A stretch of 64,000 bases of DNA from a virus (IMGVR_UViG_3300031555_004942:32001-96000), one strand, 5' to 3'; shown: positions 18,621 to 50,072, counted from the first letter of the stretch. Translations and numbers: made by a program. Notes: generated from the letters alone by a model not told the origin.

Positions 18621-18770
18621 TTATATTTTAAGTAATTAAAACAAGTATTATCTAATATTGTTTTTATAGTTTTTCATATACATCCTTTCTTTTTTACAAA
18701 TATAAATAGATAATGCTTGTTTTAATTATTTAAAATATGATAATAAAAATCAAATTTTATTATATAAAAA

Positions 18771-18817
18771 ATACAATATATAGTGTATTATATTTATATA
18801 TATACTATATATAGTGT
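18771..18817. promoter_or_regulatory. tandem NrdR-like boxes, site 1
   Basis: ATACAATATATAGTGT (18771) and ATACTATATATAGTGT (18802), 31 bp apart. Confidence 0.75.
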
Positions 18818-18854
18818 AAAAAAAAGTTATTAAAGGAAAGAAAGGAAAATAAAA

Positions 18855-19880
18855 ATGAGTGATAAAAAAATAATAGATATTATTATACCCGCATATAAAG
18901 CACAAGATAGTATTGAAAGAACAATTGCAAGTATTGCAATTCAATCAATTAAAAATCAAGTGAGAGTTACAATAGTTAATGATTGTGATGGTATTGGATA
19001 TAGTAAAATAATTAAAAGGTATTCTGATTTATTAGATATTAGAGAAATATGTTTGGATAAGAATGGTGGACCTGGTGTTGCTAGACAATATGGTATAGAC
19101 AATACTGAATTGCCTTATTTTACATGTATTGATGCTGATGATACTTTTGCAGGAGCATTTGCTTTAGAAACATTATATAGAAACTTAATATCAGATCCTG
19201 TTGGAGTATGTTGCGTAGGAGGGTTCTTAGAAGAACATGAAAATTTACAATTTGTACCACACCAAGGAGATTTAATTTGGATGTTTGGTAAATTGTATTT
19301 ACGTAAATTTATTGAAAAATATGAAATTAAATTTAATGATACTAGAGCTAATGAAGATAATGGGTTTAATACTTTGGTTAGACTATGTTCTGATGAATAT
19401 GAAAAGATTATATTTATACAAGATATCGTCTATTATTGGCATTTTAAAGAGGATAGTATAACTCGTATTAATAATTGTGAATATTCATATAATCAAAGTT
19501 TTCCAGGATATACAGAAAATATGATATATGCAATTAAGGAAGCTAAGAAAAAGAAGCCATTTAATGGATATATTAATTTATGGGCAACACAAGTTATGAT
19601 ACATTTATATGTGTATTGGTTAGAGACGTGTGAAAGAGACCCTAGATTTAAAGATCAGAATTTTAATAGTTGTGTAAAATTTTATAAAGAAGTATTTAAA
19701 GATATCTATAAAGAATTATCAGAAAAAATCTTTAAAGAAGTTTATAGTAATGTAATGATGACATCTGCTCAAGGAATGATTGGAGTTTGTCCTGAAGTTA
19801 CTATTTATCAATTTTTAGATATTTTAGAAGAAGAAATAACTGAGAAAAAAGAGGAGATAAAAAATGATAAAACAAAATAA
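18855..19880 (+). CDS. GT2-family glycosyltransferase
   Basis: IIIPAY, VNDCD, NGGPGVARQYG, IDADD and NED motifs. Confidence 0.9.
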   Translation: MSDKKIIDIIIPAYKAQDSIERTIASIAIQSIKNQVRVTIVNDCDGIGYSKIIKRYSDLLDIREICLDKNGGPGVARQYGIDNTELPYFTCIDADDTFAGAFALETLYRNLISDPVGVCCVGGFLEEHENLQFVPHQGDLIWMFGKLYLRKFIEKYEIKFNDTRANEDNGFNTLVRLCSDEYEKIIFIQDIVYYWHFKEDSITRINNCEYSYNQSFPGYTENMIYAIKEAKKKKPFNGYINLWATQVMIHLYVYWLETCERDPRFKDQNFNSCVKFYKEVFKDIYKELSEKIFKEVYSNVMMTSAQGMIGVCPEVTIYQFLDILEEEITEKKEEIKNDKTK

Positions 19881-21177
19881 TGAAACATTTTTACAATTCG
19901 CTAAAAGGTTATTAACAACAGATAATATAACTGAATATGGATTAGTTGAAATATATCGTATGTTATTTGGAGAAGTTGTATCATATGATAATGCTCAAAG
20001 ACAATTAAGAGGAATTACTCGTTTTATAAAACAATGTGATATAGAAGATATAAATAAAGCAGGAGAAGAAATTCAATCACATCAAATAGATATAAGTTTA
20101 AATAAAGATGGTAGTCAAACTAGAAATGCTTTATTATATTTATCTGAAGAACAGGTAAAGACACCTAAATTACTTTTAGAAGCACATGGATATGATCCTA
20201 ATGTTTTTGAATTAGTTAATAGTAAGAATTCAATGTGGCATCAAAAAAGTAATATTCATGGATTATCTACTTTATATTGTAGTAAGATTACAGTAAAACC
20301 AAGAACTGAGATTAGTTTAGAGCAAGTTGAGGAAATTTTTAAAAAACTAGATAGAGAAAAAACAGATGTATTGGTAAGATCAGATAATAATATATTAAGT
20401 ATTATTAATGATAGTGATGAATGTTTTGTATTAAATTTTTTTGATGTTCATTTTGCTAAATTAGCACATTCAGAAGAAACAGGTGAAGAATATAATTATA
20501 AAATTGCAAGAGATAGAATGATAAATTCTGTTATGGAATATAAAAATAGATTTAATAATAAAAGATTTGATTCTATTTATTTTGCAATAGGTCAGGATTA
20601 TTTCAATTCAGAGCCAACAGGTGCAACTGTGAATAACACAAAGCAAGATAATGATGTTAGATATTCTGTGATGTTTGAAAAAGGAGTGGAAGCTCTTATA
20701 GATGTTATAGAAATATTAAAAACTATGGGTAATATTATTTATATTCCTTTAGTTCAAGGTAATCATAGCACATATACTGAATATTATGCTGCACAGTTTT
20801 TAAAAGCATGGTATAGACATGAAAATAATGTAATTATAGATACATCAATACTTCCAAGAAAATATTATAGTTTTGGTGTTAATCTATTTGGATTCACTCA
20901 TAATAGTGAAGAAAAAAATAGGATATATACATTGATGCAAATAGAAGCTCCACAGTTATGGGCAGAAACGGAAGAAAGAACATGGTTTACTGGACATTTA
21001 CATAAAGAGGATGTAAAAGAAGATGGGGGAGTGTTTATTAGACAATCTCCTTCCATGTGTAGTACTGATTCATGGCATAAACAAAAAGGATATGTGGGGT
21101 CAATAAAAAGGACACAAGGGTTTGTATATAATTATTTAGAAGGATTAACTGAAAGTCATTATGTAAAAGTAAAATAA
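19864..21177 (+). CDS. calcineurin-like metallophosphoesterase
   Basis: DVH, GQD, GNH, TH and GHLH motifs. Confidence 0.85.
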   Translation: MIKQNNETFLQFAKRLLTTDNITEYGLVEIYRMLFGEVVSYDNAQRQLRGITRFIKQCDIEDINKAGEEIQSHQIDISLNKDGSQTRNALLYLSEEQVKTPKLLLEAHGYDPNVFELVNSKNSMWHQKSNIHGLSTLYCSKITVKPRTEISLEQVEEIFKKLDREKTDVLVRSDNNILSIINDSDECFVLNFFDVHFAKLAHSEETGEEYNYKIARDRMINSVMEYKNRFNNKRFDSIYFAIGQDYFNSEPTGATVNNTKQDNDVRYSVMFEKGVEALIDVIEILKTMGNIIYIPLVQGNHSTYTEYYAAQFLKAWYRHENNVIIDTSILPRKYYSFGVNLFGFTHNSEEKNRIYTLMQIEAPQLWAETEERTWFTGHLHKEDVKEDGGVFIRQSPSMCSTDSWHKQKGYVGSIKRTQGFVYNYLEGLTESHYVKVK

Positions 21178-21205
21178 AATATAATAAGAAAGGAGTTGAG
21201 ATAAA

Positions 21206-21532
21206 ATGCAAATAAGACAAAAATATATTATTTTTGACAAACCTACAAATACTCCTTTATCTTATGAAATAGATTTCACAAAATCTGATCTATTAAAAAT
21301 TCAGGTTAGTGGAGATGGAGAATGTGATATAAAGATTTATGGGAAGATACATCCTAAATCAGAGTATTCCCTAATGAGTATTATTAAAGATTTTGATTAT
21401 AATTTTATTAATACTATTAATTCAAAAGGTGTATATACAATATCTGCAACAGGATACGATAAACTTAAAATTGAAACAAATAATGCAGATAGCACTTTGA
21501 CTTGTGTGGCAAGTGAGGTGGTTGAAGTATGA
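21206..21532 (+). CDS. hypothetical beta-rich, probably virion-associated protein
   Basis: 108-aa ORF with RBS, precedes fibre genes. Confidence 0.65.
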   Translation: MQIRQKYIIFDKPTNTPLSYEIDFTKSDLLKIQVSGDGECDIKIYGKIHPKSEYSLMSIIKDFDYNFINTINSKGVYTISATGYDKLKIETNNADSTLTCVASEVVEV

Positions 21533-21777
21533 CAGATATTACAGCACGAGCATTAGCTATGCAAGCAATTAATATGAAAAATATAAATCAGTTTAGTTCA
21601 AAAGCTGAATTTCCAATTATTGGGCAAGAAGGTATTTTATATATAGATGAGATTAATAATCAATTGTATTATTGGAATTTAAATACTCAGAGTTATGCAT
21701 TATTAATTTCAGGGAATTTAGATATAGAAAATATCTTATCTGGAATAATATTAGATGGTGGTTCATCATCATCTTAA
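21529..21777 (+). CDS. small fibre-associated protein
   Basis: FPxxG...LYID....LYYWN motif typical of fibre modules. Confidence 0.6.
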   Translation: MTDITARALAMQAINMKNINQFSSKAEFPIIGQEGILYIDEINNQLYYWNLNTQSYALLISGNLDIENILSGIILDGGSSSS

Positions 21778-21801
21778 ATTAAAAATATAGGAGGGGGTTT
21801 T

Positions 21802-24800
21802 ATGATAAATGATTCATATAATCAAATTGATGTAAAAATAGTGCATAAAAATGATACTTATGAAAATTGGACAAAAAACAATCCTGTTTTATTAAATTCA
21901 GAGATTGGGTATGATACTACTAATAAAAAAATTAAAATAGGTGACGGTGCGACTAATTGGAATTCTTTACCTTATTATGATGAAGACTATATTAATGAAA
22001 AAATTGCAGAATTAGTTGATACAGCACCAGAAACTCTGAATACACTAAATGAACTTGCACGAGCTTTGGGAGATGACCCGAATTTTGCTACAACAATAGC
22101 AAACCAGATTGGTAACAAAGTAGATAAAATTGAGGGAATGGGTTTATCTGCTAATAATTTTACAAATTCAGAAAAAGAAAAACTTGCTAATTTATCAAAA
22201 ATTCCTATTAATAATGGTACTGGCAAAAATAGTATAGTTATAAATGATGGTGAGGCAAATGGAGAATATTCAGTTGCTGGGGGTGTTACAGATAAGAGTG
22301 TTATAGAGTCTCTTGTAGGTAGTGTTGCAGCTTCGTTAGTTAAGGTTGATAAAGCTAAAGCAAATGGAATTATGTCTTTATCTTATGGAGTAAATACAGA
22401 AACACAGACTTCAGGAAGTATGGCTCTGGGAGTTGATAATATTGTGGGTGTTAAAGGTTATTATTGGCACACAATAGATTTTATAAATAAAACAATAACT
22501 CTATCTACTAATAGACCAACGACATTATCAGGTTCTGTAAAAGCTCCTAGTAATTTAGATTGGGAAGTTGGTGACTACATATCAATTACCAATGAAAGTA
22601 ACTATCCATTCTGTACCAAGATTACCGCAATTACAGGCAATATTATTACTGTTGAATCATTGCCGTTTAAGAGTAATCCATATGATACAAAAAAAACAAT
22701 ACTTGGTCAAGAGGTAATAGTTTATCCTGCAGTATATGCCACTCCATACAATAGAACTATTTATGCAGTATATCGAGATGAATATATATCTGTTCTTGAT
22801 AAAACTATAGAACATTGGGCTTTTAGAAATGGTATTGTAGAGTTAGGTTTTGGTGGAACGGCTATTGGTGCTTTAAATAAAGTGTCTGGATTGGTGGCAT
22901 CTGCAAAAGGCTTTGAAAACTTTGCAGTTGGAGACTATTCTGAAGTTTCTGGATCACATAATATTGCTGGAGAATATGCTTCTGCAAGAGGATTTTGGAC
23001 TAAAGCATTAGGTCGATTTTCAACAACTGATGGTAGAGGTACTGAAGCTTTGGGAGAAGCTCAATATGTTCATGGTAAGTATAATATCCTTGATCCAAGC
23101 AATAAATATATCGAGATTGCTGGTAATGGTAAAAATGAAGATAATCGTTCTAATGCTTATACATTAGATTGGAATGGTAATGCATGGTATGCAGGAAATG
23201 TTGATGCTACAGATGGTAATTTTTCTGGTAATGTATCTGGTACAAACGCAAATTTTAGTGGATATGTAACTGATGGCTCTGGTAATAGACTAATAGATTC
23301 AAATACTGCAATAAATAATGCGGCTAAATGTTTTGGAGAAGAAGTTTTAATTAATGGCGATAATTATGTAGAGTATTTTAATGCTCTTGGCATTAAAGAT
23401 TATTCTATTACAGGAAATGGAGCTGTGACTACTTATGATGAATCTACAAATTCTTATTACCTGCCTATAACTTGTGGAGTTAAAGAAAATATAAAAGCTG
23501 TTGATGGAGATAAATATTTATTGATTGAGTCTCCTACTGCCGCTATAGCACATCGCTTTATTCATTTATTACGAAATGATAATACAAATATAGTAGAGAT
23601 AGGTCATTCGTATACTTTTACTGCATGGTGTAAGACAAAGAAAGGCACTAATACTGTTAAAACACATATTAGTTCATCAGCATTAAGTACAAATACAATT
23701 ATGCCAACTCAAACAAAAGCTTCAGCCGTAACTATCAATAGTAATGAATGGACAAAAGTTATTGGAACTTTTAATATTATAGAGGCAACTGGAGATAAAA
23801 CTCAAAATAATGGATTTCATTTAGGAGTTGAATTTACATCTTCTAATTTTAGTGATATATATATAGATAATTATTGTCTTGTAGATAATGAAAATCCTGA
23901 TGTGAATTTGCTTGAACATAGTATTGCTAAAACTAACAGTAAATATGTAAAGTGTGATTATATGTTTGAAGGCATTAATGGGACTATAGATGGACTAGTT
24001 AATGGTACTGCTTCTTTTGTAGAAGGTGGTACTGCTGATTATATTCCATCTTCTGTTACAGTTAATATTCCTGTAGATGCGGAGACTTTTACAGGCACAT
24101 TAAATTATGTTAACGATAGTTTGCCTGAATTACCCGCATTTTTTGGATATACATCTACGTATACACTGGAAACAACATCTGACGTAATATTTGATCTAGT
24201 ATGCTACAGTAAGATAAATTCCCCTACAAAAGTATCCCAGCTTGAAAATGACATAGGCTATCTTACAGAGCATCAGGACATATCGGGAAAAGCTGATGTA
24301 AACCATAAGCACCCTGAGTATTTAACCGAACATCAAGATATATCAATAAAAGCTGATATAGACCATACTCATACAGGGGAGCAGGTAAATGTGACATTGG
24401 AAATACTTGATGATAACAGAGAACCTACAGGCGAATCATCAACAATATCTTTGAACGAATTTGTAAATCAGGTGGTTTTATTAGAGGGTAGAACTATTAT
24501 TGAAGGTATAATCAATGAGATTGACATCATAAATACCGATAAAGTGAACAAGTCAGAGTTGGAGACAAAGGCAGACAAGACTATCATACAAACTGATACC
24601 GAAGCGACAGAATATGCATTTGACTTTTCTGATATGTATAACAAGGAAATGAGATTGCAATCAGCATCTTCTATAAGTATTAAATTTGCAGACAATGAGT
24701 ATGCGAATGACTATATCTCAGGGTTGAGCTTTAACAGTGGTGAAACACCTACAGGATTTGATTATGCTGATAGTGGTATCATAAATTGGGTGGGAACAGA

Positions 24801-24939
24801 TTGTGTAAAGAATGGAGATCTCTCTATATTCCAACCGTCTGCCAATACTCATTATGACATTGTGTTTTATTTTAATGGTGTGCAGTTTATAGGACTAGTA
24901 AACGGCTTTGTACCTGCAATAGGAAATGAGGCGGTATAA
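21802..24939 (+). CDS. tail-fibre/adhesin-like protein (Mtd-N-like domain, fibre motif, YadA-like repeats, possible CBM)
   Basis: NPVLLNSEIGY...KIGDG..WNSLPY; APETLNTLNELARALGDDPNFATT; A.G..S.A.G repeats; YLTEHQDIS twice. Confidence 0.75.
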   Translation: MINDSYNQIDVKIVHKNDTYENWTKNNPVLLNSEIGYDTTNKKIKIGDGATNWNSLPYYDEDYINEKIAELVDTAPETLNTLNELARALGDDPNFATTIANQIGNKVDKIEGMGLSANNFTNSEKEKLANLSKIPINNGTGKNSIVINDGEANGEYSVAGGVTDKSVIESLVGSVAASLVKVDKAKANGIMSLSYGVNTETQTSGSMALGVDNIVGVKGYYWHTIDFINKTITLSTNRPTTLSGSVKAPSNLDWEVGDYISITNESNYPFCTKITAITGNIITVESLPFKSNPYDTKKTILGQEVIVYPAVYATPYNRTIYAVYRDEYISVLDKTIEHWAFRNGIVELGFGGTAIGALNKVSGLVASAKGFENFAVGDYSEVSGSHNIAGEYASARGFWTKALGRFSTTDGRGTEALGEAQYVHGKYNILDPSNKYIEIAGNGKNEDNRSNAYTLDWNGNAWYAGNVDATDGNFSGNVSGTNANFSGYVTDGSGNRLIDSNTAINNAAKCFGEEVLINGDNYVEYFNALGIKDYSITGNGAVTTYDESTNSYYLPITCGVKENIKAVDGDKYLLIESPTAAIAHRFIHLLRNDNTNIVEIGHSYTFTAWCKTKKGTNTVKTHISSSALSTNTIMPTQTKASAVTINSNEWTKVIGTFNIIEATGDKTQNNGFHLGVEFTSSNFSDIYIDNYCLVDNENPDVNLLEHSIAKTNSKYVKCDYMFEGINGTIDGLVNGTASFVEGGTADYIPSSVTVNIPVDAETFTGTLNYVNDSLPELPAFFGYTSTYTLETTSDVIFDLVCYSKINSPTKVSQLENDIGYLTEHQDISGKADVNHKHPEYLTEHQDISIKADIDHTHTGEQVNVTLEILDDNREPTGESSTISLNEFVNQVVLLEGRTIIEGIINEIDIINTDKVNKSELETKADKTIIQTDTEATEYAFDFSDMYNKEMRLQSASSISIKFADNEYANDYISGLSFNSGETPTGFDYADSGIINWVGTDCVKNGDLSIFQPSANTHYDIVFYFNGVQFIGLVNGFVPAIGNEAV

Positions 24940-26546
24940 TGACATATTTACAGAAAAAGAAACTTGCCTTTATGAGTATAGTAAATCAGATTAAAGGCTT
25001 TGTAAGAACTGTATCAGGAGTACCCCCTTTGATATTGTCTGATTGTGTAGATAATGACAGCCTTATCAATTACACAATAGACGGAAACAGCATACAAAAC
25101 GGAACTCCCACACCTGATACTCCTGTTGAGGTTGAGAGTGTGGGAGAAAAGACAAAGAATATAGTTAGAGATTATGTATATGTAGACCAAACGACACGTT
25201 ATAACTCACCTTTACATGCGAAAAATTCGTTTACACTTAAGCAAGGGGTAACGTATACTATTTCATTTGATACTCCTAATACTATGAAGAATGTAGCATA
25301 CGCACAATATGCGTATACTGAAGAAGGGTTGAAAACAGTATTATTAAATGGCACAAGGCAGTCAATAACTGTAACACCTACAAAAGATATGACATCAGCA
25401 ACAATACTTGTAGTAACATCTGTCGTTTCTGAAGGTGACAGTACAGGATTGTGTAGTAATTGCATGATTGAAGAAGGTAGTACCGCTACCGATTATGAGC
25501 CATACGGATACAAAATCCCTGTTGTATGTAGTGGTAAGAATTTGTTTGATAAAGATAATTTTACTCCTAGCATGACTAATGGCACACGTACAAAAAACGG
25601 CTACGATTATACAGTTATAGGCAATAAAGGGAATGAGGCATCAGCATCATCTGGAAGTTTTAATGTAAGATTCTCTGAAGGTATTATAACACCAACTAAA
25701 AACCTCACTGTATCAGTCTATATAACAATGTTAGAATATGGTGGCATTGGCGACAAAATAAGATTATGGACGGTTAGCGGTAGTTCGGCAAAACAACATA
25801 CTTTTGCTTCAAAAACTGTTTCTTTAAATGAGAGACTTCGACTATCTTGGACTTATACGAATGTTGACTATGAGATTGATGCATTATGGTTTTATGTCAA
25901 TGGTAATAAGTTATTAATCGAAATGGACACCCTACAGATTGAAACAAATGATGTTATGACCGATTATGAGCCTTATTACCTGCCTATTACAACTAACATC
26001 TATCTTGATGAACCCCTTCGTAAAATCGGTGACTATGCGGACTATGTTGATTTTGAAAATCGGAAGGTTGTAAAAAATGTATCCGAAACAATTTTGAAAG
26101 GCACAGAGGATTGTTATTCATCAGGGATAGGAAGTACAAATGAAAGGATAATTTATGATTTATCTGTATTCAACGGGTTAAAAGGGAATGGAAATACACC
26201 AAGCTTATGTACACACACAAAAACCACAATTGATGCAAATGTTGGTTGGGCAGGCACAAAATTTGTAATGCAGGTAGCTAATGCAGATGTCCGTTTCTAT
26301 CGTCCTTTTTATTGTGAAATAACTGAATTTACTGAGAAAACACCTTTTGAATGGAAACAATACCTTGCACGATTGTACGCTGAAGGAAATCCTTTCAAGG
26401 TTTATAGTGTACGAAGTGAAACCTCAGAGGAAACCATTAACTTACCCAAACTACCCTCATTTAAAGGCACAACCGTCTACACAATCAAAACAAGTGTGCA
26501 ACCATCAGAAATGAGTGCGACATATTATGCTATGAATAAGGAGTGA
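24939..26546 (+). CDS. BppU/receptor-binding-like structural protein
   Basis: GNSIQNGTPTPDTPVEV, GKNLF and TDYEPY (twice) motifs. Confidence 0.65.
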   Translation: MTYLQKKKLAFMSIVNQIKGFVRTVSGVPPLILSDCVDNDSLINYTIDGNSIQNGTPTPDTPVEVESVGEKTKNIVRDYVYVDQTTRYNSPLHAKNSFTLKQGVTYTISFDTPNTMKNVAYAQYAYTEEGLKTVLLNGTRQSITVTPTKDMTSATILVVTSVVSEGDSTGLCSNCMIEEGSTATDYEPYGYKIPVVCSGKNLFDKDNFTPSMTNGTRTKNGYDYTVIGNKGNEASASSGSFNVRFSEGIITPTKNLTVSVYITMLEYGGIGDKIRLWTVSGSSAKQHTFASKTVSLNERLRLSWTYTNVDYEIDALWFYVNGNKLLIEMDTLQIETNDVMTDYEPYYLPITTNIYLDEPLRKIGDYADYVDFENRKVVKNVSETILKGTEDCYSSGIGSTNERIIYDLSVFNGLKGNGNTPSLCTHTKTTIDANVGWAGTKFVMQVANADVRFYRPFYCEITEFTEKTPFEWKQYLARLYAEGNPFKVYSVRSETSEETINLPKLPSFKGTTVYTIKTSVQPSEMSATYYAMNKE

Positions 26547-26551
26547 TATAA

Positions 26552-26815
26552 ATGGAACTTTATAAGTTTATAAGCGAAACAGAGATTAAGAAGTATAAAG
26601 GTGGATTTGTTGTTGTAGATAATACAATATACACAAATCCCAAAGAAGAAATAATAAGGATGGCAGGATATAAAGAATTAATTGATACACCTATCCCTGA
26701 ATATAATCCTGAAATAGAATATATTGTATTAACATATCAGGATGGTGAAAAAATTACTCCTTGTTATACTGTAAATCAAATAGAGTTCATGGAAGAATTA
26801 GAAGTAATAGAATAA
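26552..26815 (+). CDS. small fibre-assembly-like protein
   Basis: TNP......AGYK...P.YNPE motif; follows fibre genes. Confidence 0.55.
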   Translation: MELYKFISETEIKKYKGGFVVVDNTIYTNPKEEIIRMAGYKELIDTPIPEYNPEIEYIVLTYQDGEKITPCYTVNQIEFMEELEVIE

Positions 26816-26843
26816 TAAAAACTGAATTTTATTGTATAATATA

Positions 26844-26891
26844 GCACAACATATAGTGTATGATTTTATTTTCATACACTATATATAGTTG
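26844..26891. promoter_or_regulatory. tandem NrdR-like boxes, site 2
   Basis: GCACAACATATAGTGT (26844) and ACACTATATATAGTTG (26876), 32 bp apart. Confidence 0.75.
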
Positions 26892-26930
26892 TGATTTTGA
26901 AATGTTTTAAAGGAGAAAGAGGTGAAAAAT

Positions 26931-38444: not shown

Positions 38445-38470
38445 TAAAATATTAGAGAGGAGAGGTAAAA

Positions 38471-39166: not shown

Positions 39167-39492
39167 TGGATTTTAAATTAAAAGTTGAGCTTACAAAAGA
39201 AGAAAAAGATATTTGTTTAAAAGATATTAGACGTAGAATTGTTCGTAGTATATATGTATATGAACAGTCGTTTATAGAAGATAGTGGTTATGATTATAAA
39301 ATTTATGTTCATAGTCTTATGTTGTATATATCAAGTTCTAATTATTTATTTGATGGAGAATTAGTTAGTTTAATTGTATATTTAAATAGTATTTTATTAA
39401 ATGATTTTGATAAAAAACAATTTAAGAAGATAATATTTGAATGTAAAAACTATATTGATTATCTATTAAAAGAAGGTGAATCCAATGGGTAA
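39166..39492 (+). CDS. hypothetical protein
   Basis: ATG 39166 after AAGGAGG. Confidence 0.6.
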   Translation: MDFKLKVELTKEEKDICLKDIRRRIVRSIYVYEQSFIEDSGYDYKIYVHSLMLYISSSNYLFDGELVSLIVYLNSILLNDFDKKQFKKIIFECKNYIDYLLKEGESNG

Positions 39493-41331: not shown

Positions 41332-41333
41332 AA

Positions 41334-42284
41334 ATGGCTAAAAAAATTAAACGAGAAGAATTATTAAATTTAATAAAGTATTATGAACAGGCTTTTTTTA
41401 CAAATGATTTGCCTATTCCTTTTAAATATAATTTAACGATATATCCCATTCTTGTAGAAAATTATTATAAATTTTATGCGAGTATAGGATGTTTTAAAAT
41501 AAATAAAAATGAAGATATAAAAGGTGTAGGTATGTCGAATTTAGATTATGTTCTTTATTTATCTGAACAAGAAGATGGTAAAAGATTTTTCTTTCAGTTA
41601 ATCTCATTATTAGAATTAATATTTCATATAAAAAATGGAATTATTTGTCCTGAGTGTGGAAAGGTAATTTCATATGAGGAAATAAATGAAAAAATTGATA
41701 AAATAAAATTGATAGAAAATGAAAATGAACGTAATAATACAATGCAATTATATATTGAACAAATAGAATATTGCGATTGTAATAAAGATAATAAAATAAA
41801 AAGAGAGCCTGTTATACAGTATAGTCGTGAGAAAGGTAATAAATATATTTCTATTAATGGAATAAAAATAAATCCAGAAGAATATGATTTATTGCGTAAT
41901 ATTGTTTTATATTATAATATTCCAGATTATGATGATGAATATATTGATCCTGAATTAAAAGCAGAATTAGAAGAAGTTGCAAGATTAAAAAATCCTAATA
42001 ATGTGCAACCTTCTTTAGAAAAACAAATGTCTTGTATTGTATCGGCAGGTGTGTCATATACTTATGAGACAATAAAACAATTATCTATTCGTAAAATGGT
42101 ATTGTTGCTTCGAACAATTGATGCAAGATTGCATTATTTTGCTTATAGACAAGCAGAGGCTAGTGGTTTTGTATCTTTTAAAAATGAATTAACACATTGG
42201 ATATATGGAGTAGATAAGAAAGATAAATTCTCGGATGTTATGACAATGGATGCATTAAGAGATAAATTAAAAGATGTAATTTAA
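41334..42284 (+). CDS. putative tail assembly protein
   Basis: Position before tail tube gene; C-terminal THW motif. Confidence 0.5.
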   Translation: MAKKIKREELLNLIKYYEQAFFTNDLPIPFKYNLTIYPILVENYYKFYASIGCFKINKNEDIKGVGMSNLDYVLYLSEQEDGKRFFFQLISLLELIFHIKNGIICPECGKVISYEEINEKIDKIKLIENENERNNTMQLYIEQIEYCDCNKDNKIKREPVIQYSREKGNKYISINGIKINPEEYDLLRNIVLYYNIPDYDDEYIDPELKAELEEVARLKNPNNVQPSLEKQMSCIVSAGVSYTYETIKQLSIRKMVLLLRTIDARLHYFAYRQAEASGFVSFKNELTHWIYGVDKKDKFSDVMTMDALRDKLKDVI

Positions 42285-42351
42285 TAAAAAAAATAGATAG
42301 AAATATCTATTTAATATAAAAAATAATATAAAATTTAAGGAGGAAAAAATT

Positions 42352-43413
42352 ATGGTATTTTTAGCTGGTGTTGCAAATGCGGAAATTTTTAAAAATAATG
42401 ATCTTTTTGCTACTGCAAAAACATTAATTGATAGTTCAATCACAATCGGAGTATCTGCAGAAGATATTCGTGCAGGTCAAGGTGCAAAATTGTATGGTAA
42501 GTATTTCCACACAAGTACTTTTGATCTTAAAATGACAGATGCTATGTTTAAACTTGAGTACATAGCTGCAAACGTTGGTGCTGATTTAACTCTTGGTGGT
42601 GACGTATTCACAGAAGAGGAGCATATAATTGAAGCAGGTGGAGCATTTGAACTTGCACATGCTGTTGTTCCTATGCAAGAAGGTGCATCTAGATTTATTT
42701 ATTATAAGAAATCAGATGACAGTTTCTACAGAACTCTTAAGCTTAATGACGAAAATTATAAAGATGGTAAAGTAACAATTACAGGTATTGAAGCAGGTAC
42801 ATGGTGCGTTAAGTATTTATATACTAATGATTCTGCACGTAAGTTAGTTGTAAGTGCAAACTTTACACCTGATACACTTTCTGTATATCTTACAGCAAAT
42901 CTTTATGCAGGTGATGATGCAAATCCTTCAACTGGTACAAAAATTGGTACAGTAACAATTAAAGTACCTCGTTTCTTACTTTCTGGTTCACAAGAACTTA
43001 GCATGTCTATGACAGGTGCTTCAAATACAGCATTTGAAGGTTCTGCATTGGCTTCAAAAGGTAAGGGATGTGATAGTGATGGTGTTTATGCTGAAATTAT
43101 CGAAGTTGTAACAGGTAGAACATATGCTGATTTAGTTGCTCTTGCTATTGATGGTGAGGCTGATGGTCTTTCTTTAGCAATTGGCGAATCAGAGGAACTT
43201 GTTGTATATGGCAGATATGAAGACACAGCTCCTGCAATTGTTGATAATTCAAAAGTAAAATTTGAAGCAACTGGAGAGGCTGTAACTGTTGATACAAATG
43301 GTGTTATTACAGCAGCTTCAGCAGGAACAGCTACTGTAACTGTTTCTATTAAAGATAGAGATGGTAAAGATGTTTCTTCAACAATTGAAGTAACAGTACC
43401 TGCTGCTGAATAA
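42352..43413 (+). CDS. major tail protein with C-terminal Ig-like (Big_2) domain
   Basis: VTVDTNGVITAASAGTATVTVS Ig motif; position. Confidence 0.75.
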   Translation: MVFLAGVANAEIFKNNDLFATAKTLIDSSITIGVSAEDIRAGQGAKLYGKYFHTSTFDLKMTDAMFKLEYIAANVGADLTLGGDVFTEEEHIIEAGGAFELAHAVVPMQEGASRFIYYKKSDDSFYRTLKLNDENYKDGKVTITGIEAGTWCVKYLYTNDSARKLVVSANFTPDTLSVYLTANLYAGDDANPSTGTKIGTVTIKVPRFLLSGSQELSMSMTGASNTAFEGSALASKGKGCDSDGVYAEIIEVVTGRTYADLVALAIDGEADGLSLAIGESEELVVYGRYEDTAPAIVDNSKVKFEATGEAVTVDTNGVITAASAGTATVTVSIKDRDGKDVSSTIEVTVPAAE

Positions 43414-43784
43414 TGAGTGGAAATCTTTGTCCTTATAGTAATAGGGTAGGGCGAGAATTAAAATGCACACTTGGCGAAAGTCAAGTGTGCAAATATGTTA
43501 GATATTGTACTATTGATTCAAAATGGTGGAATTCTAATAATTTTACTTCTTGTGAAAGGAGGAAACAAGAAATGTCTAAGAATAAAAACAGAAATTATGA
43601 AAATTTTGAAAGAAAAAATGAAAATATTGTAATTGCTAAAGAACAAGAAATTGTAGCAACTGAAGATATTAAAGAGGATGTTTCAATTGAGGTTGAAGCT
43701 ATAAAAGAGCCTAAGAAAGAAAAAGCTGTGAAAGTATCAATTCCTCAAGTGCCAAAAAGATCAAGAAGAAGGACTTTATATTAA
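43413..43784 (+). CDS. hypothetical Cys-rich protein
   Basis: 123-aa ORF overlapping the tail gene stop. Confidence 0.55.
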   Translation: MSGNLCPYSNRVGRELKCTLGESQVCKYVRYCTIDSKWWNSNNFTSCERRKQEMSKNKNRNYENFERKNENIVIAKEQEIVATEDIKEDVSIEVEAIKEPKKEKAVKVSIPQVPKRSRRRTLY

Positions 43785-43879
43785 TAAAAAATTTATCAAA
43801 AGGAAGATAAGCTACAAGAGTAGTTTATCTTTTTTTTGCATAAAAATGTAATAAAATTATTTTTTTATCGTATATTTTA

Positions 43880-43927
43880 CCACAATATATAGTATTACAT
43901 ATATGATGCCTATACAATATATTGTGT
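43880..43927. promoter_or_regulatory. tandem NrdR-like boxes, site 3
   Basis: CCACAATATATAGTAT (43880) and ATACAATATATTGTGT (43912), 32 bp apart. Confidence 0.75.
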
Positions 43928-43965
43928 TTAAAAATTATTATAAAATATGATTGGCAGGTATTGTT

Positions 43966-45390
43966 ATGAGCAAAAAAAAAGAAAAAATAAAAATTAATTT
44001 TATAGGAGCTAACGCTGATCAGGTTACAGGTTCTTGTACTCATATTGTAATGAATAATAAACAAATTTTATTAGAATGTGGGTTAATGCAAGGAGGTAAA
44101 ACTATATTAGAAGATTATAGAAATAATGTAAAAAAATTTAGTTTTAATGCCTCTCAGATTGATTATGTTTTTGTAGGGCATGCACATGCAGATCATTGTG
44201 CTATGATTCCTAGATTGATAAAAGAGGGATTTGAAGGTAAGATAATTGTTCCTAAAGGAAGTAGTTCAATAATTTATGAAATATGTAAAGATTGTGCTTT
44301 TATTATGTTTAAGGATTGTGAATCATTAAGAAAAAAATATAAAGATAAACAATTTTTACCTGCGTATACTGAAGAACATGTAAATTTAATGATGGACCAT
44401 ATATATGAATATGAAATGGAAACTAATTATTGTTTAGACGATAATGTTTCTTTTACTTTTTACAATAGTCAACATATTGTATGTTCTGCTCAAATTATGC
44501 TTTGGTTAACGCAAAACAATCATACAAAAAAAATTATATATACAAGTGATTTAGGTAATATTTCTGTAGAAAATAATTATGTTCAAGAAATTACAAAACT
44601 TCAAAAAGCAAATCTTTTGATTGGAGAAGCAACGTATTGTGAACATTCTAAACCACTTACACATAAACATAGAAAAAAAGATTTAGAAAAAATAAAATGT
44701 GTAATAGACCAATGTGTAGAAAATAATTCGTCTTGTTTAATCCCAACTTTTTCTTTGCATAGAACACAAGAAATGATAACAGAAATATATAAAATATATA
44801 AAAACAATAATGTAAATATTGATTTTATTATTGCTTCTCCTTTAGCAAATAAAATTTGTGATATTTTTTTACAGATTTTAAAAGGAGAACAATTAAAACT
44901 TTTTACAGAGGTTATGAACTGGAGTAAATTAAAAAGAGTAAGAGATTATGATAAAGTAAATGAGTTATTAAATGATAAAAAGCCACATGTATGGTTGGCT
45001 TCTTCAGGATTTATGACTGCAGGATATTCTCGCAGTATTTGTTCTTATTTATTAGGTAATTCAAAAAATACAATTATTTTATCAGGATATGCTCCAGAGG
45101 GTTCTTTAGCTTATAAGATAAAAAATGGAACAACAAAAACGATTACTATAGATGATAAGGTTTGCAAAAATTTAGCAACTGCTGTAATTCTTAAAAGTTT
45201 TTCAAGTCATATGCAATATTATGATTTATTAAAATATTATTCAGATAGTTTTGTTGAAAAAATTTGTATTGTTCATGCAGATAAAAAACATAAGATAGAT
45301 TTTTGTAAAACTTTACAAAGTGAAATAAATAATAAAAATAAAACGCAAAGAGTAGTATGTGTCACTAATGGTACATCTATTAATTTATAA
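43966..45390 (+). CDS. metallo-beta-lactamase / beta-CASP family nuclease
   Basis: VTGSC, LECG, HAHADH, TSD, EATY, FSSH and VH motifs. Confidence 0.9.
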   Translation: MSKKKEKIKINFIGANADQVTGSCTHIVMNNKQILLECGLMQGGKTILEDYRNNVKKFSFNASQIDYVFVGHAHADHCAMIPRLIKEGFEGKIIVPKGSSSIIYEICKDCAFIMFKDCESLRKKYKDKQFLPAYTEEHVNLMMDHIYEYEMETNYCLDDNVSFTFYNSQHIVCSAQIMLWLTQNNHTKKIIYTSDLGNISVENNYVQEITKLQKANLLIGEATYCEHSKPLTHKHRKKDLEKIKCVIDQCVENNSSCLIPTFSLHRTQEMITEIYKIYKNNNVNIDFIIASPLANKICDIFLQILKGEQLKLFTEVMNWSKLKRVRDYDKVNELLNDKKPHVWLASSGFMTAGYSRSICSYLLGNSKNTIILSGYAPEGSLAYKIKNGTTKTITIDDKVCKNLATAVILKSFSSHMQYYDLLKYYSDSFVEKICIVHADKKHKIDFCKTLQSEINNKNKTQRVVCVTNGTSINL

Positions 45391-45407
45391 TAAAGGAGAA
45401 AAACGAT

Positions 45408-46061
45408 ATGAAATATAATAAAGGTTTTGAAGACGTTATTACTTTTTTAACTCCTCAGGTGGAAGAGTTTGCAAATTTTAAAATCCCTTCTGTTGAATCA
45501 TTAGAAGAATGGAATGATTTTAAAAATAGAAAAATTTATCTTGATTTTGAAATAGGTGATTATTTAATTACAATTTCAAAACGTATTATTTCATGGAATA
45601 GCGAAGATAAAGATATTCCAAAAAATGAAAGAAAACCAATAACAATATATATTAATTCCCCTGGTGGAAGTTTACAATCATGTATGACATTTATAGATGT
45701 ATTAAAAATGTCAACAACTCCTATTAATTTAATTTGTATTAATGGAGCGTATTCCGCAGCAGGGATGATTTTTATGTGCAAAGGAGAAAACATTGTTAGA
45801 TCTATTGTCCCACATGGAAAAGTTTTGATTCATCAAGGTAGTTTAGGTATGGGTCAGGTTCAAACACATCAATTTTTAGATTTAGCTTCAGATGTACAAA
45901 AAGATGAAAAAAAAGTAAAAGATTATATTTTAGAAAATACAAAAATTACATCTCGTATGTATGATAAAAAGAAGAAAGATGAATGGACTTTAAATGCTGA
46001 AGAATGTATTCTATATGGAGTATGTGATAAAATAATTGAAGATATTTCAGAATTATTTTAA
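45408..46061 (+). CDS. clpP: ClpP-like serine protease
   Basis: YINSPGG, AYSAA, IHQ, YGVCDKI. Confidence 0.85.
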   Translation: MKYNKGFEDVITFLTPQVEEFANFKIPSVESLEEWNDFKNRKIYLDFEIGDYLITISKRIISWNSEDKDIPKNERKPITIYINSPGGSLQSCMTFIDVLKMSTTPINLICINGAYSAAGMIFMCKGENIVRSIVPHGKVLIHQGSLGMGQVQTHQFLDLASDVQKDEKKVKDYILENTKITSRMYDKKKKDEWTLNAEECILYGVCDKIIEDISELF

Positions 46062-46072
46062 AGGGAGATATA

Positions 46073-46339
46073 GTGATGAAAAATACTAATAGAGATTATA
46101 ATCAATCTAAAAAAATAAATAATTTTAAAAAAAATAATTTTAATAATTATTATAAAGATGAAGATGAAGAAAGTCAAGTTTTTTATAAAAAAAAACAAAC
46201 TAAAAAGAAATCAGACATTGAATCTAATGAGTTTGTTTTACAGTGTTTAGAAAAAGAAAAAAACAATGAACGTAGAAAGTTCAAAGAAAAAGAAAAAAAT
46301 AGAAGAAGTAAAAAAGATCGTATTTATGAAGATGATTAA
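46073..46339 (+). CDS. charged low-complexity hypothetical protein
   Basis: 88-aa ORF with RBS. Confidence 0.5.
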   Translation: MMKNTNRDYNQSKKINNFKKNNFNNYYKDEDEESQVFYKKKQTKKKSDIESNEFVLQCLEKEKNNERRKFKEKEKNRRSKKDRIYEDD

Positions 46340-46356
46340 TTAAAGGAGGGTTTTAT

Positions 46357-46722
46357 ATGAGTACAATGAATTTAGTATTAGAATATATAACACAGTATGG
46401 AGCAATTGTAGGAATTATTATTCTTGTTGTTGTAGGATTCATATTAAAAATTCAGCAAATTGTTAATGGAAATCTTGTTGAGTGGCTTGTTGATAAAGTT
46501 GCTTATGCTGAAGCTTATTTAGGATCAGGTACAGGGCAGATGAAATTAAGATATGTGTATGATTTGTTTGTACAAAAAAGAACAATATTAGCTTCTTTAA
46601 TTTCATTTGATAAATTTTCAAAATTGGTTGATTTAGCTTTAGATAAATTTGAAACAATGCTTAAGAATAATAAAGCAATCAAAGAGTGGTTTGAAAAATT
46701 ACAAGAAGAAAAAAATAAATAA
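46357..46722 (+). CDS. putative holin (LL-H-like)
   Basis: N-terminal TM helix; AE..LGSGTG.MKL.YV. Confidence 0.7.
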   Translation: MSTMNLVLEYITQYGAIVGIIILVVVGFILKIQQIVNGNLVEWLVDKVAYAEAYLGSGTGQMKLRYVYDLFVQKRTILASLISFDKFSKLVDLALDKFETMLKNNKAIKEWFEKLQEEKNK

Positions 46723-46818
46723 TATATAGAGCAATTTTATATTGCTCTTAAAAGTATATTATTTATTATAAAATAATGTGTTTTTAAGAACAATATAAAA
46801 GATAAGGAGAATAAAATA

Positions 46819-47367
46819 ATGAATAAAACATCATTGGGAAAAAAATTTGAAAAAAATTTTGGAGATTCTGCGAAACAAGATGGTATTTTTACACATAGGT
46901 TAAAAGATACTGATTTATCATATAATGGTAATTCTGTTTCAAGTTTTACTCCGTCAAATAAATGTGATTATTATTTTTTAGGTAATGTAAAAGATGGTAG
47001 AGGAACTTTATTTGGTGTTGAATGTAAAAGTACTAAATATTCATCTATAGGAATTCAAACATCCCCAGAAGATCCAGAAAAAATGATAAAATATAAACAA
47101 ATTCAAAGTTTGATTGAATTAAGTATGTATGAAGGTATAAAATCAGGTTTTGTATTAAATTTTAGAGATGATGATACAAATATGGAAGATACATATTATA
47201 TTTCTATAGAAGATTTTTCTACGTTTTTAAATGAAACGCATAAAAAATCTATTAATAAAGCTGATTGTGAATTAAGAGGTCTATCTGTGGAATCAAAATT
47301 AAAAAGAACAAACTATAAATATAATGTAAAAAAAATGTTAGAAGATATAATTAGAAAGGAGAGTTAA
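46819..47367 (+). CDS. RecU-like Holliday junction resolvase
   Basis: GKKFE, CDY, ECKST and Q..L motifs. Confidence 0.8.
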   Translation: MNKTSLGKKFEKNFGDSAKQDGIFTHRLKDTDLSYNGNSVSSFTPSNKCDYYFLGNVKDGRGTLFGVECKSTKYSSIGIQTSPEDPEKMIKYKQIQSLIELSMYEGIKSGFVLNFRDDDTNMEDTYYISIEDFSTFLNETHKKSINKADCELRGLSVESKLKRTNYKYNVKKMLEDIIRKES

Positions 47368-47368
47368 T

Positions 47369-48409
47369 ATGGCAAGAGAAACTTTTAAAAAACAGTTTAC
47401 TACTCCTGATATTATAAAACAGATTAATCCTAAAAATGTAAAATTAATGAATTTATATTTAAAAGATAAGAGTAGAAAATGTAGTGATGCTACAATGAAA
47501 GTGTATGCATCTAATTTAAATATATTTTTTTGTTGGAATGTTATATATAATGATAATAAATATTATCCAGAAATTAAAAAAGTAGAATTAAGTGAATTTT
47601 TTGATTTTTTAGTTAATGAATTAAAAATACAAGGAAAAAGGTTTGCTCACTATCGTTCTGTTTTGAGTACCTTATCTGACATTGTAATAAAATATTATGA
47701 TGATGATTATCCTACTTTTAAAAATATTGTAAATACAATTATTGAACCCATTCCAAAAGATGCAGTAAGAAAAAAAACAATTTTAACAGATGAAGAAGTA
47801 GAACTTATTTTTGAAGTTTTGATTGCAAAGGATAGAATACAAGAAGCCTGTTGTTTTGCTCTTGCTGTATATTCTGGAATGAGAATTGCAGAGATTGAAC
47901 AAATGAAAGTCGATATGATTGATAGAGAAAATAGTTTATCGTTTGGAGGAGTTTCTTTACAAACTACTGAAAAAATAAGAACAAAAGGATTTGGAAAACA
48001 AGGAAAGGTTATTTATAAACATATCATTAAAGATTTATTTTTACCTTATTTTGATAATTGGTTAGTAGAAAGAAATAGGATTATTGAAGAGTTAGGAATT
48101 GAAGACCATGGATATCTTTTTATAAAAAGAAATGGTCAAAAAGCTACACAACATGTTATTCGTAATTGGGCAGATAAATGGAGTAAAATTGTAGGTAAAG
48201 ATGTATATCTCCATTGTTTAAGACATAACTTAGTTACATATTTAACAAAATTAGGATTAGGTAGTGATTTTATTATTGCTTTTATGGGATGGTCCTCGGC
48301 TGATATGTACAAAATCTATAATGACCTTGAGGATTCTGAACTTGATTGGAAAGATAGTAAAAAATTACAAGAAATTATCAATAAAAAATTATTAGAAGAA
48401 GATGAATGA
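47369..48409 (+). CDS. tyrosine recombinase/integrase
   Basis: SGMR, K, HCLRH, GW and catalytic Y. Confidence 0.9.
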   Translation: MARETFKKQFTTPDIIKQINPKNVKLMNLYLKDKSRKCSDATMKVYASNLNIFFCWNVIYNDNKYYPEIKKVELSEFFDFLVNELKIQGKRFAHYRSVLSTLSDIVIKYYDDDYPTFKNIVNTIIEPIPKDAVRKKTILTDEEVELIFEVLIAKDRIQEACCFALAVYSGMRIAEIEQMKVDMIDRENSLSFGGVSLQTTEKIRTKGFGKQGKVIYKHIIKDLFLPYFDNWLVERNRIIEELGIEDHGYLFIKRNGQKATQHVIRNWADKWSKIVGKDVYLHCLRHNLVTYLTKLGLGSDFIIAFMGWSSADMYKIYNDLEDSELDWKDSKKLQEIINKKLLEEDE

Positions 48410-48434
48410 TTGTAAGCTTATAGGAGGTGAATAT

Positions 48435-48641
48435 ATGTCTGTAAAAATAAAATTTAAAACAGGAGAAGGTATTCCTAATAAATTAGAGGTGGGAGAACCT
48501 GCTTTTGATACAAAATATAATATTGTATATATTGGTGATCAAAATGGAAATCCTATTTCTTTAAATTCTGTTAATACAGATAAAATTACTCAAGGTGATT
48601 TAATTCTAATTTTAAATGGTGGTACTTCAGAAAATGAATAA
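48435..48641 (+). CDS. small Mtd-N-like fibre-associated protein
   Basis: LEVGEPAFD....YIGD motif. Confidence 0.55.
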   Translation: MSVKIKFKTGEGIPNKLEVGEPAFDTKYNIVYIGDQNGNPISLNSVNTDKITQGDLILILNGGTSENE

Positions 48642-48706
48642 ATATTTACACATAAGATAATATCGAAAAAGATTTTTAAATAGTATTTATTTAAGGAGTG
48701 AAATAT

Positions 48707-49582
48707 ATGAAAAATATAGAAAAATTAATTAACTATGCTTTAACATGGGTTGGATATTGTGAGAAAAAATCAGCACAACATCTTGATGATTTTTCAAAGA
48801 ATGCAGGAAGTGGTAATTATACTTGTTTTGCAAGAGATTATAAAAAACATTCTGGTATTGATGTTCAGGGGCAACCATGGTGTGATGTTTATGTAGATGA
48901 ATGTTTTATAAATGTGTTTGGTGTAGAAAAAGCAAAAGACCTTTTACATGGATTTTCTGCTTATACTCCAACTTCTGCAGATAATTTTAAAAAACATAAA
49001 GAATGGTACAATAAACCTCAAATTGGAGATGTGATTTTTTTTAAAAATTCAACTCGTATTTGTCATACAGGAATTGTTTATAATGTAACAAAAGATAGAG
49101 TGTATACAACAGAAGGGAACACATCAGGAGGAACAGAACTTGAGGCTAATGGAGGATGTGTTGCTAAGAAAAATTATCCATTATCTTATAGTAAGATTGC
49201 AGGATATGGTAGACCTAATTATGAGAAATATGAACAAAAAGAAGTAGTTGTAGAGGAATATATTGATAATGAACCTATAATTTGGGAGCTTCAGAATAGA
49301 AAAATTATTACTAATGTGAATTTATGGAGAAAGAAAATTCAAGAAGATCAGAACATATATTGGCTTTGCAGAAAAGCAATTCAATACATAAGAACTAAAC
49401 AAACTACAGAATATGCCGATGTTGTATATACAAACAAAGATGAGATTTTGTGGGAGTTAAAAAATAGAAAAATAATAACGGATGTTGATTTGTGGAGAAA
49501 ATATATGATTGAGGATCAAAATGTTTATTGGCTTTGTCATAATCTTGTACACTATATGAGGACTCAAAAGAAGGAAGTGTGA
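48707..49582 (+). CDS. endolysin (CHAP domain plus duplicated C-terminal module)
   Basis: PWCD, HTGIV, EGNTS, GYGRP; 56-aa-period repeat. Confidence 0.85.
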   Translation: MKNIEKLINYALTWVGYCEKKSAQHLDDFSKNAGSGNYTCFARDYKKHSGIDVQGQPWCDVYVDECFINVFGVEKAKDLLHGFSAYTPTSADNFKKHKEWYNKPQIGDVIFFKNSTRICHTGIVYNVTKDRVYTTEGNTSGGTELEANGGCVAKKNYPLSYSKIAGYGRPNYEKYEQKEVVVEEYIDNEPIIWELQNRKIITNVNLWRKKIQEDQNIYWLCRKAIQYIRTKQTTEYADVVYTNKDEILWELKNRKIITDVDLWRKYMIEDQNVYWLCHNLVHYMRTQKKEV

Positions 49583-49585
49583 GTT

Positions 49586-49972
49586 ATGTTTTATCTTGAT
49601 AAATCAGAGTATAATAAAAAGTTAAAAAAAATAAAAAAGCAAAATGAAAGTTTTTTGAGAAAACAAGAATTAGCAGAGATGCGATTAAAGACCAAAAAAG
49701 AAAAAAGCAAAAAAACAACTACTAAAATAGTGATGTTTTATTTATTTACTGTTTTAAATTTAGTTCTTATTTATTCTTTGATTGCAATGTGGCATTTTGA
49801 AGATTTGACTCATTTAGGGGTTTTAATTACTGATATTATTGGACAAATTATTGTTTTTTTAGTATATTGTTTAAAATCAGCTAAAGAGAATTCTCAGGGT
49901 GGAATTGTTTATGAACAGGCGATACATAATAATTTAAATTATGAAGATGATAGTTTATTAAAAGATAAATAA
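49586..49972 (+). CDS. two-TM membrane protein (holin-like)
   Basis: Two hydrophobic helices followed by Y..KS..EN. Confidence 0.6.
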   Translation: MFYLDKSEYNKKLKKIKKQNESFLRKQELAEMRLKTKKEKSKKTTTKIVMFYLFTVLNLVLIYSLIAMWHFEDLTHLGVLITDIIGQIIVFLVYCLKSAKENSQGGIVYEQAIHNNLNYEDDSLLKDK

Positions 49973-49997
49973 AATTTCAATTTTATTGTATATTTAA

Positions 49998-50045
49998 CCA
50001 CAATATATTGTGGTTTTGTTATTATATGTATACAATATATTGTAT
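49998..50045. promoter_or_regulatory. tandem NrdR-like boxes, site 4
   Basis: Perfect palindromes CCACAATATATTGTGG (49998) and ATACAATATATTGTAT (50030), 32 bp apart. Confidence 0.75.
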
Positions 50046-50072
50046 AAAAAAGTTATTAAAGGAGAAAAAATT

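Follow-up and report, generated by a model that had tools for sequence, protein, structure and literature searches.

NrdR is a bacterial repressor that senses the levels of DNA precursors and is regarded as almost specific to ribonucleotide reductase genes. In phage T4, late transcription is coupled to replication through the sliding clamp gp45 together with gp55 and gp33. Here we describe four repeated elements, each carrying two NrdR-type boxes, that stand ahead of predicted late gene blocks in the IMG/VR virus contig IMGVR_UViG_3300031555_004942. The stretch under study (hereafter the window) is 64,000 nucleotides long and comprises bases 32001–96000 of this 117,109-base contig; positions below are counted from its first letter unless stated otherwise. 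The contig has a G+C content of 26% and an estimated completeness of 67% (CheckV), and its source is an uncultured SPbeta-like phage.

An NrdR site consists of two 16-bp, partly palindromic boxes separated by a linker of 15–16 bp (PMC12051234, PMC13584703). Four NrdR proteins bind best at linkers of about 15–17 bp, with 14–17 bp tolerated and a second optimum at 24–27 bp, and consensus boxes bind Listeria monocytogenes NrdR (LmoNrdR) at 1–3 nM (PMC12051234). Within each box, C4, A6, A8, T9, T11 and G13 are highly conserved, and binding depends critically on C4 and G13 (PMC13584703). In published cases, the boxes overlap the start site (PMC9110341). During lytic infection by pneumophage SpSL1, the NrdR regulon of the host is strongly derepressed; NrdR thus leaves the DNA while the phage replicates (PMC6755750). 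The promoter used by YonO, the polymerase of SPbeta late transcription, is still undefined (PMC5467207). Our literature searches turned up no account of such boxes at the late genes of phages.

Results

Four predicted NrdR operators in one phage contig

The window was searched for the box pattern ACACWATATATWGTGT with up to three mismatches. Sixteen matches were obtained, compared with 3.2 ± 1.9 in dinucleotide shuffles, and none of 100 shuffles reached 16. The eight matches with only one or two mismatches form exactly four pairs, at 18771/18802, 26844/26876, 43880/43912 and 49998/50030. The original prediction, made from the sequence of the window, had described four elements whose boxes agree with the NrdR consensus acaCwAtATaTwGtgt at 13–15 of 16 positions and lie 31–32 bp apart. 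All four elements were confirmed where it had placed them; the eight boxes agree with the consensus at 14–15 of 16 positions, and the start-to-start distances are 31, 32, 32 and 32 bp, giving linkers of 15, 16, 16 and 16 bp. A matrix scan was also run over the whole 117-kb contig. With a weight matrix built from the boxes, only these eight scored strongly (18.7–23.5 bits), and the next best site reached 13.8 bits. The six highly conserved positions of the NrdR box are present in all eight boxes (48/48 positions); positions 5 and 12 are non-complementary in three of them. Judged from the DNA, the four predicted operators show every testable sequence-level feature expected of an NrdR site with high affinity.

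Three single, weaker box-like sites lie in coding sequence (26714–26729, 20267–20282 and 38826–38841; 12.5–13.8 bits) and are probably due to chance. The one at 26714 sits 130 bp upstream of the second element.

A common architecture ahead of four late gene blocks

The order of parts is the same in all four cassettes: an 18-bp palindrome, a −10-like TRTATAWW word, the two-box predicted NrdR operator and a ribosome-binding site. Box 1 begins 10–11 nt past the palindrome and 2–3 nt past the −10-like word, and the box pair lies about 20–40 nt upstream of the ribosome-binding site of the late block. From the end of box 2 to the start codon there are 27–59 nt, varying with the site and with the start codon chosen. 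The four cassettes are oriented and spaced alike with respect to the −10-like word and the ribosome-binding site, and are laid out as follows (ORF, open reading frame):

18743–18817, + strand, cassette 1: palindrome 18743–18760, TATATAAA, box 1 18771–18786, 15-bp linker, box 2 18802–18817; the downstream gene encodes a GT2 glycosyltransferase (start codon 18855)
26815–26891, + strand, cassette 2: palindrome 26815–26832, TGTATAAT, box 1 26844–26859, 16-bp linker, box 2 26876–26891; the palindrome overlaps the stop codon of the preceding ORF, and the first downstream gene starts at 26922 (GTG) or 26931 (ATG)
43851–43927, + strand, cassette 3: palindrome 43851–43868, CGTATATT, box 1 43880–43895, 16-bp linker, box 2 43912–43927; a weak hairpin and T-run lie just upstream (~43806–43835), and the beta-CASP gene starts at 43951 (TTG) or 43987 (ATG)
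49969–50045, + strand, cassette 4: palindrome 49969–49986, TGTATATT, box 1 49998–50013, 16-bp linker, box 2 50030–50045; the palindrome overlaps the stop codon of the preceding ORF, and the first gene (ATG 50073) is followed by a giant tape-measure ORF from 51324

The word TTTTATYRTATA, reported earlier ahead of each pair, was indeed found at the four sites, with only two further + strand copies in the contig, both without boxes. The 17-nt leader AAAAAGTTATTAAAGGA that was said to be common to sites 1 and 4 is also real. A sigma-70 scan of the late region gave nothing above chance and placed no promoter on the cassettes, and no −35 element was found at them. The early regions of the contig differ in this respect, as they carry perfect sigma-A promoters (TTGACA-N17-TGnTATAAT). 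Because the cassettes have no −35 element, a phage factor or phage polymerase is probably needed for their transcription. The early promoters occur both inside and outside the window, for example at window positions 2886, 4323, 7539 and 13099 on the + strand and 11973 and 13018 on the − strand, and several are directly trailed by GAGAGG...CCTCTC or GTATAGG-loop hairpins. When cassette 4 was compared with known phages by blastn, weak matches only were returned; those to Prevotella Lak phages were inspected and set aside as chance AT-rich similarity without boxes.

The genes downstream of the cassettes form four blocks:

18855–26815, + strand, late block 1: GT2 glycosyltransferase, 1045-aa Mtd_N/CBM fibre-like protein and others
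26922–43784, + strand, late block 2: terminase large subunit (28216–30537), portal (30905–32785) and head/tail proteins up to an Ig-domain tail protein
43951–49972, + strand, late block 3: beta-CASP nuclease, ClpP-family protease, integrase-family protein, CHAP lysin, a small membrane-type ORF and, as a weak match, a RecU-like protein
50073–64000, + strand, late block 4: a pair of ~200-aa ORFs followed by the giant tape-measure ORF, which carries a PhageMin_Tail domain at residues 3416–3634 and runs off the window

These contents agree with the glycosyltransferase/fibre, terminase–head–tail, beta-CASP/ClpP/lysis and tape-measure blocks named in the original prediction. Its statement that the boxes are not at nrd genes holds for the whole 117-kb contig, in which neither an NrdR gene (TIGR00244, E up to 10) nor any ATP-cone, class I/II reductase or class III reductase gene was found. 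We read each element as a composite regulatory cassette that heads a late gene block. None of the known phages matched when 20 kb of the window was compared with them by megablast, and the sole tblastn match of the portal was one distant faecal phage, which offers no host clue.

The same cassette in contigs with different genes

The palindrome-plus-boxes layout was also found in the low-G+C contigs L124 (= L220) with its related fragment L207, L213/L206, L211 and L212/L123, which share almost no proteins with the window phage by blastp. We aligned nine cassettes from at least five phages with almost no common proteins. Linkers and spacers differ among them, but the half-sites do not change at all, a pattern that is the signature of protein–DNA recognition. 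In L123, one further palindrome copy is accompanied by TGTATA and has no boxes.

The closest relative, L322, encodes a polymerase 75% identical to that of the window phage (described below) and has a single tandem pair in 102 kb (G002:C1:27337–27380), 11 nt from a palindrome. Here, TAGGTCTTTAA stands between palindrome and boxes instead of TGTATA, and the cassette lies ~50 kb from the polymerase gene. It precedes a small unknown gene; thus, the same cassette occupies differing junctions in related phages.

Several observations concern the gene content of these fragments. The only protein clearly shared between the window and the L124/L207 fragments is a 5'(3')-deoxyribonucleotidase-like (NT5C) protein (31% identity), whose gene lies at window positions 13159–13773, just before the polymerase module, and has a weak Pfam match. 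L124 itself encodes a class II ribonucleotide reductase with ATP-cone and intein/homing-endonuclease domains (L124:3816–8147), and its NrdR-type cassette lies downstream of this reductase gene, before an unknown 166-aa ORF and a Xer-like integrase. The idea that the cassette is a phage copy of a host nrd promoter found no support: a composite search of metagenome contigs returned no bacterial nrd promoter with the same upstream word.

Tandem NrdR-type boxes in viral DNA

A sample of viral contigs was surveyed with a pattern that fixed only the inner half of each box (ATATATWGT ... ACWATATAT), and genes were assigned from simple ORF calls. At least 112 loci had a linker of 15–16 bp, and the control search with an out-of-phase linker of 20–21 bp gave a complete list of 92 loci. 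The positions left free by the pattern were then informative. Among the matches listed, C4 of box 1 was present at 105 of 118 sites with the 15–16-bp linker versus 6 of 90 at 20–21 bp, and G13 of box 2 at 103 of 118 versus 14 of 90; both were present together at 99 of 118 sites versus 1 of 90. Among the same listed matches, 88 of the 99 complete pairs (89%) lay outside ORFs of at least 100 aa, compared with 42 of 90 control sites. In viral DNA, complete tandem boxes are thus almost confined to the NrdR spacing, and their behaviour is that of regulatory sites.

Downstream genes were tallied, among the matches listed, as long ORFs up to 5 kb from 62 clusters of complete pairs and, more narrowly, as the two ORFs within 1.2 kb. 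The long-ORF tally contained three reductase large subunits, four NAD-dependent ligases, three SPP1-type portals and one T7-type portal, along with capsid, prohead protease, terminase and primase-helicase genes; reductase genes are therefore a minority downstream of complete pairs. Two NrdD genes and one NrdE gene lay within 5 kb of boxes, and this tally took in the nrdIEF operon of L020. Among the nearer ORFs (loci L011–L122), integrases and Ant/Bro anti-repressors recur. With the same pattern, boxes were found in their customary place as well, directly upstream of a phage NrdB with an ATP-cone and of a class II enzyme, as well as upstream of nrdI-nrdE(intein)-nrdF in an SPbeta-like prophage contig that also encodes a YonO-type polymerase.

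In the siphovirus-type locus L055:2015–2095, from an independent phage, the boxes are interleaved with a consensus host promoter: the linker contains TTGACA, with TACAAT 17 nt further on, immediately past box 2. These boxes stand between a terminase-like ORF and an SPP1-type portal gene, directly before the latter. Since boxes occur at many other phage genes, the arrangement in the window is one instance of something broader. Their recurrence before ligase, portal, anti-repressor and integrase genes hints that prophage induction and packaging are tied to the state of the deoxynucleoside triphosphate (dNTP) pool in many phages.

The polymerase module and the upstream palindrome

Three genes precede cassette 1:

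14208–17117, + strand: YonO-type single-chain RNA polymerase (Pfam RdRP PF05183, E 2e-13; tblastn with SPbeta yonO, E 1e-21)
17101–18057, + strand: 318-aa protein whose C-terminal part has two CxxC...CxxC zinc ribbons and a basic tail; its gene is translationally coupled to that of the polymerase
18198–18542, + strand: HU-like DNA-binding protein in the yonN position (Pfam Bac_DNA_binding, E 1.3e-15), directly upstream of cassette 1

The first of these is the RNA polymerase gene that had been placed at 14217–17117. Its product is 41% identical to a homologue in Bacillus phage BUCT082 (tblastn) and is a candidate enzyme for late transcription. The zinc-ribbon protein, which has no similarity to NrdR or to any solved structure, is a candidate DNA-binding partner of the polymerase. 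The gene order is thus polymerase, zinc-ribbon protein, HU-like protein and cassette 1, in which the yonO–yonN order is as in SPbeta and BUCT082. A 133-aa ORF ahead of the polymerase gene has no zinc-ribbon CxxC motifs. In the closest relatives, the polymerase gene is interrupted by ~1.5 kb with a 325-aa ORF (L007:12046–13590, also L008), an insertion that looks like an intron or intein-type element. In two other phages that encode YonO-type polymerases, there are box pairs whose linker is 26 bp long, at the second optimum for NrdR binding (L158:5163–5220 and L171:2086–2143). Both pairs lie in non-coding stretches upstream of the polymerase region, and in L171 a TTGACT-TGgTATAAT promoter follows ~40 nt further on.

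The 18-bp palindrome has the form ATAAAA-N6-TTTTAT, with a variable centre and arms that are invariant at all four sites; TTTTATYRTATA is its right half. There are 10 copies in the contig, compared with 0–1 for spacers of 3–9 nt, and six of them have no boxes. They lie at window positions 13282, 18743, 26815, 43851 and 49969 and at contig positions 65, 1309, 29566, 105240 and 115487. The palindrome is an element in its own right.

This bears on the earlier suggestion that a TTTTATTGTATA core may be the late promoter of the phage RNA polymerase, which found no support. The word is missing near the late genes of about 80 phages whose polymerases are related, two of them at 75% identity. Specifically, across 80 related loci (1.5 Mb), the sequence downstream of the polymerase gene contains neither TTTATTGTATA nor ATAAAA-N6-TTTTATTGTATA, with L009 as a possible exception. 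Moreover, the cassette of the 75% relative keeps palindrome and boxes with a different 11-nt word between them, and the conserved upstream part is the palindrome, whose six box-free copies are noted above. Tandem boxes are likewise essentially absent from the 80 loci. In the two phages whose polymerase is 75% identical, a sigma-A-like promoter follows the HU gene and boxes are missing there, and the yonN–yonK gaps of SPbeta and BUCT082 contain no boxes and no TTTTATTGTATA word.

Discussion

Host NrdR as a possible gate on late transcription

On balance, we consider it probable, though far from secure, that host NrdR gates late transcription by the dATP/ATP state at the four late blocks. Virion production would then probably be tied to the dNTP or replication state of the cell. 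A host NrdR tetramer, binding DNA only while carrying both ATP and dATP, would sit on the two boxes. Because the boxes begin 2–3 nt past the −10-like word, a tetramer bound there would lie over the start site and roughly the first 45 nt that are transcribed, and initiation or early elongation would be blocked at all four late blocks while dATP is high. NrdR would leave once dATP has been drained by phage replication, or once genome copies exceed the repressor in number; the derepression of the host NrdR regulon by SpSL1 (PMC6755750) supports such a release. The fibre, packaging–head–tail, lysis and tape-measure genes would then be switched on together; thus, late expression would be coupled to replication and to dNTP state. 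These promoters may be fired by the YonO-type enzyme, by the host enzyme together with a phage factor, or by some other polymerase.

Several points weigh against this proposal. A host nrdR gene is an assumption; a Bacillota-like host is inferred only from strong Shine-Dalgarno sites and consensus sigma-A early promoters. About one third of the phage genome is missing from the contig, and a binder of the phage's own could be encoded there. Phages with a 75%-identical polymerase have no boxes at the equivalent late junctions, so the arrangement is not essential to late transcription of this type. If the phage polymerase rather than the host enzyme fires the promoters, repression by NrdR is without precedent. 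Additionally, the cassettes in L211 and L123 are antisense to neighbouring ORFs, and RNA folding pairs box 1 with box 2 better than shuffles at sites 1 and 2 (z −4.5 and −5.2).

Alternative explanations

The best surviving alternative is that the boxes act as a repressor decoy. Four sites on each replicating genome would titrate scarce host NrdR, derepress the host reductase operons and so supply dNTPs, and the position before late genes would be secondary. The copy number fits this idea, as do the near-consensus and hence probably high-affinity boxes, the lack of a detectable reductase or ATP-cone gene in the 117 kb, and the derepression of the NrdR regulon during phage infection (PMC6755750). 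However, a pure decoy needs no fixed place, yet all four pairs are oriented alike and stand in one register at operon heads, with the −10-like word on one side and the ribosome-binding site on the other. The interleaving of the boxes with a promoter in L055, and the intergenic position next to gene starts of 89% of the in-phase sites among the matches listed, point the same way, and a reductase, like that of L124, may be encoded in the third of the genome that is missing. The fixed register at operon heads argues that titration is not the sole role. We regard it as unlikely to be the main explanation, while it is compatible with gating and both may coexist.

A second alternative is that a phage-encoded protein binds the boxes independently of host NrdR, either the zinc-ribbon protein at 17101–18057 or a factor in the unseen 33% of the genome. 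The likeness to NrdR sites would then be coincidence or mimicry, and the boxes would belong to the phage's own late promoter or activator site. A zinc-ribbon protein of DNA-binding type is indeed encoded beside the polymerase, just upstream of cassette 1, and the cassettes, unlike the sigma-A early promoters, have no −35 element, so a phage factor would be needed anyway. Against this, the same consensus and linker rule appear in more than 60 unrelated viral contig clusters, some before reductase genes, where a lineage-specific factor should have a lineage-specific site; this uniformity favours a host factor. Relatives that keep the pair of polymerase and zinc-ribbon protein (75% and 38–50% identity) have no boxes near their late genes, the zinc-ribbon protein does not resemble NrdR, and the 15–16-bp linker mirrors the geometry of the NrdR tetramer (PMC12051234). 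We consider a phage-encoded binder quite improbable.

A role in nucleic-acid structure or recombination, whether as a 5'-leader hairpin of box 1 with box 2 that stabilises, processes or attenuates late mRNAs or as a mobile junction element through which phage tyrosine recombinases exchange modules, draws on the pairing predicted at sites 1 and 2, the terminator-like hairpin score of box 1 of site 4, the abundance of the palindrome at one spacer length only, the recurrence of the cassette at differing junctions in unrelated phages, the integrase-family genes nearby and the leader shared by sites 1 and 4, but is very improbable given that predicted folding at sites 3 and 4 does not surpass that of shuffles (z −0.9 and −1.4), that positions 5 and 12 are non-complementary in three boxes and it is the sequence rather than the pairing that is conserved, that a hairpin or recombinase site leaves the 15–16-bp linker restriction and the identity with reductase-gene boxes unexplained, and that a mobile cassette could equally well serve as an operator, by analogy with the PeSL (promoter-early stem-loop) cassettes found in T4-type phages (PMC2839356).

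Significance

Should NrdR gating of the late blocks prove correct, a host metabolic sensor would serve as the timer of virion assembly and lysis, and the dATP/ATP ratio would provide a simple chemical link between genome replication and late gene expression. Drugs or conditions that alter dNTP pools should then shift phage timing and burst size, and altered phage development would be expected in nrdR mutants. The survey of viral contigs suggests a broad phenomenon that is not peculiar to one genome. More tentatively, and with somewhat less confidence than we place in gating at this locus, many unrelated phages may have co-opted the host dNTP sensor NrdR as a replication-coupled switch, above all for packaging, head and lysis genes. 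This would be a general and undescribed solution to late switching, present in SPbeta-like phages as portable cassettes joined to ATAAAA-N6-TTTTAT.

Comparison with known systems

The predicted phage operators most resemble those of bacterial NrdR regulons, such as L. monocytogenes nrdDG and nrdAB, Streptomyces coelicolor nrdRJ and Escherichia coli nrdHIEF. These have the same boxes with the same six positions and a 15–16-bp linker, and they likewise coincide with a −10-like element or stand just downstream of one, a short way from the start codon (PMC12051234, PMC9110341, PMC13584703). The phage cassettes differ in preceding late genes instead of reductase genes, in being present in four copies per genome, in having no −35 element and in the fixed 18-bp palindrome 10–11 nt upstream; in addition, the polymerase that uses the promoter may be a phage enzyme. 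Control of non-reductase genes by NrdR boxes, as proposed here, has been described for topA of Pseudomonas aeruginosa (PMC4409342) and the SPD_1594–1595 operon of Streptococcus pneumoniae (PMC6755750). Unlike the phage cassettes, both are chromosomal, involve no virus and form no set of operons, and topA has a single box and is activated by NrdR.

Late transcription in SPbeta shares the order of a YonO-type polymerase gene, an HU-like gene and then late genes, with a late promoter, putative in the window phage, just after the HU-like gene. SPbeta differs in having one late start, upstream of yonK and behind a 1.7-kb non-coding stretch, without NrdR-type boxes or TTTTATTGTATA (PMC5467207). In layout, the cassettes also recall the PeSLs, which are short repeated promoter-plus-palindrome cassettes at module junctions that are common to phages with different genes. 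The same pattern is seen in the four copies described here together with those in L124/L207, L213, L211, L212/L123 and L322. PeSLs differ in that they contain strong sigma-70 promoters together with terminator stem-loops, and they have no repressor operator (PMC2839356). Finally, the proposed logic is that of T4, in which late genes are expressed only once replication is under way: T4 senses the replication fork through its clamp, whereas in the phage described here a dATP/ATP signal would be read through a repressor of the host.

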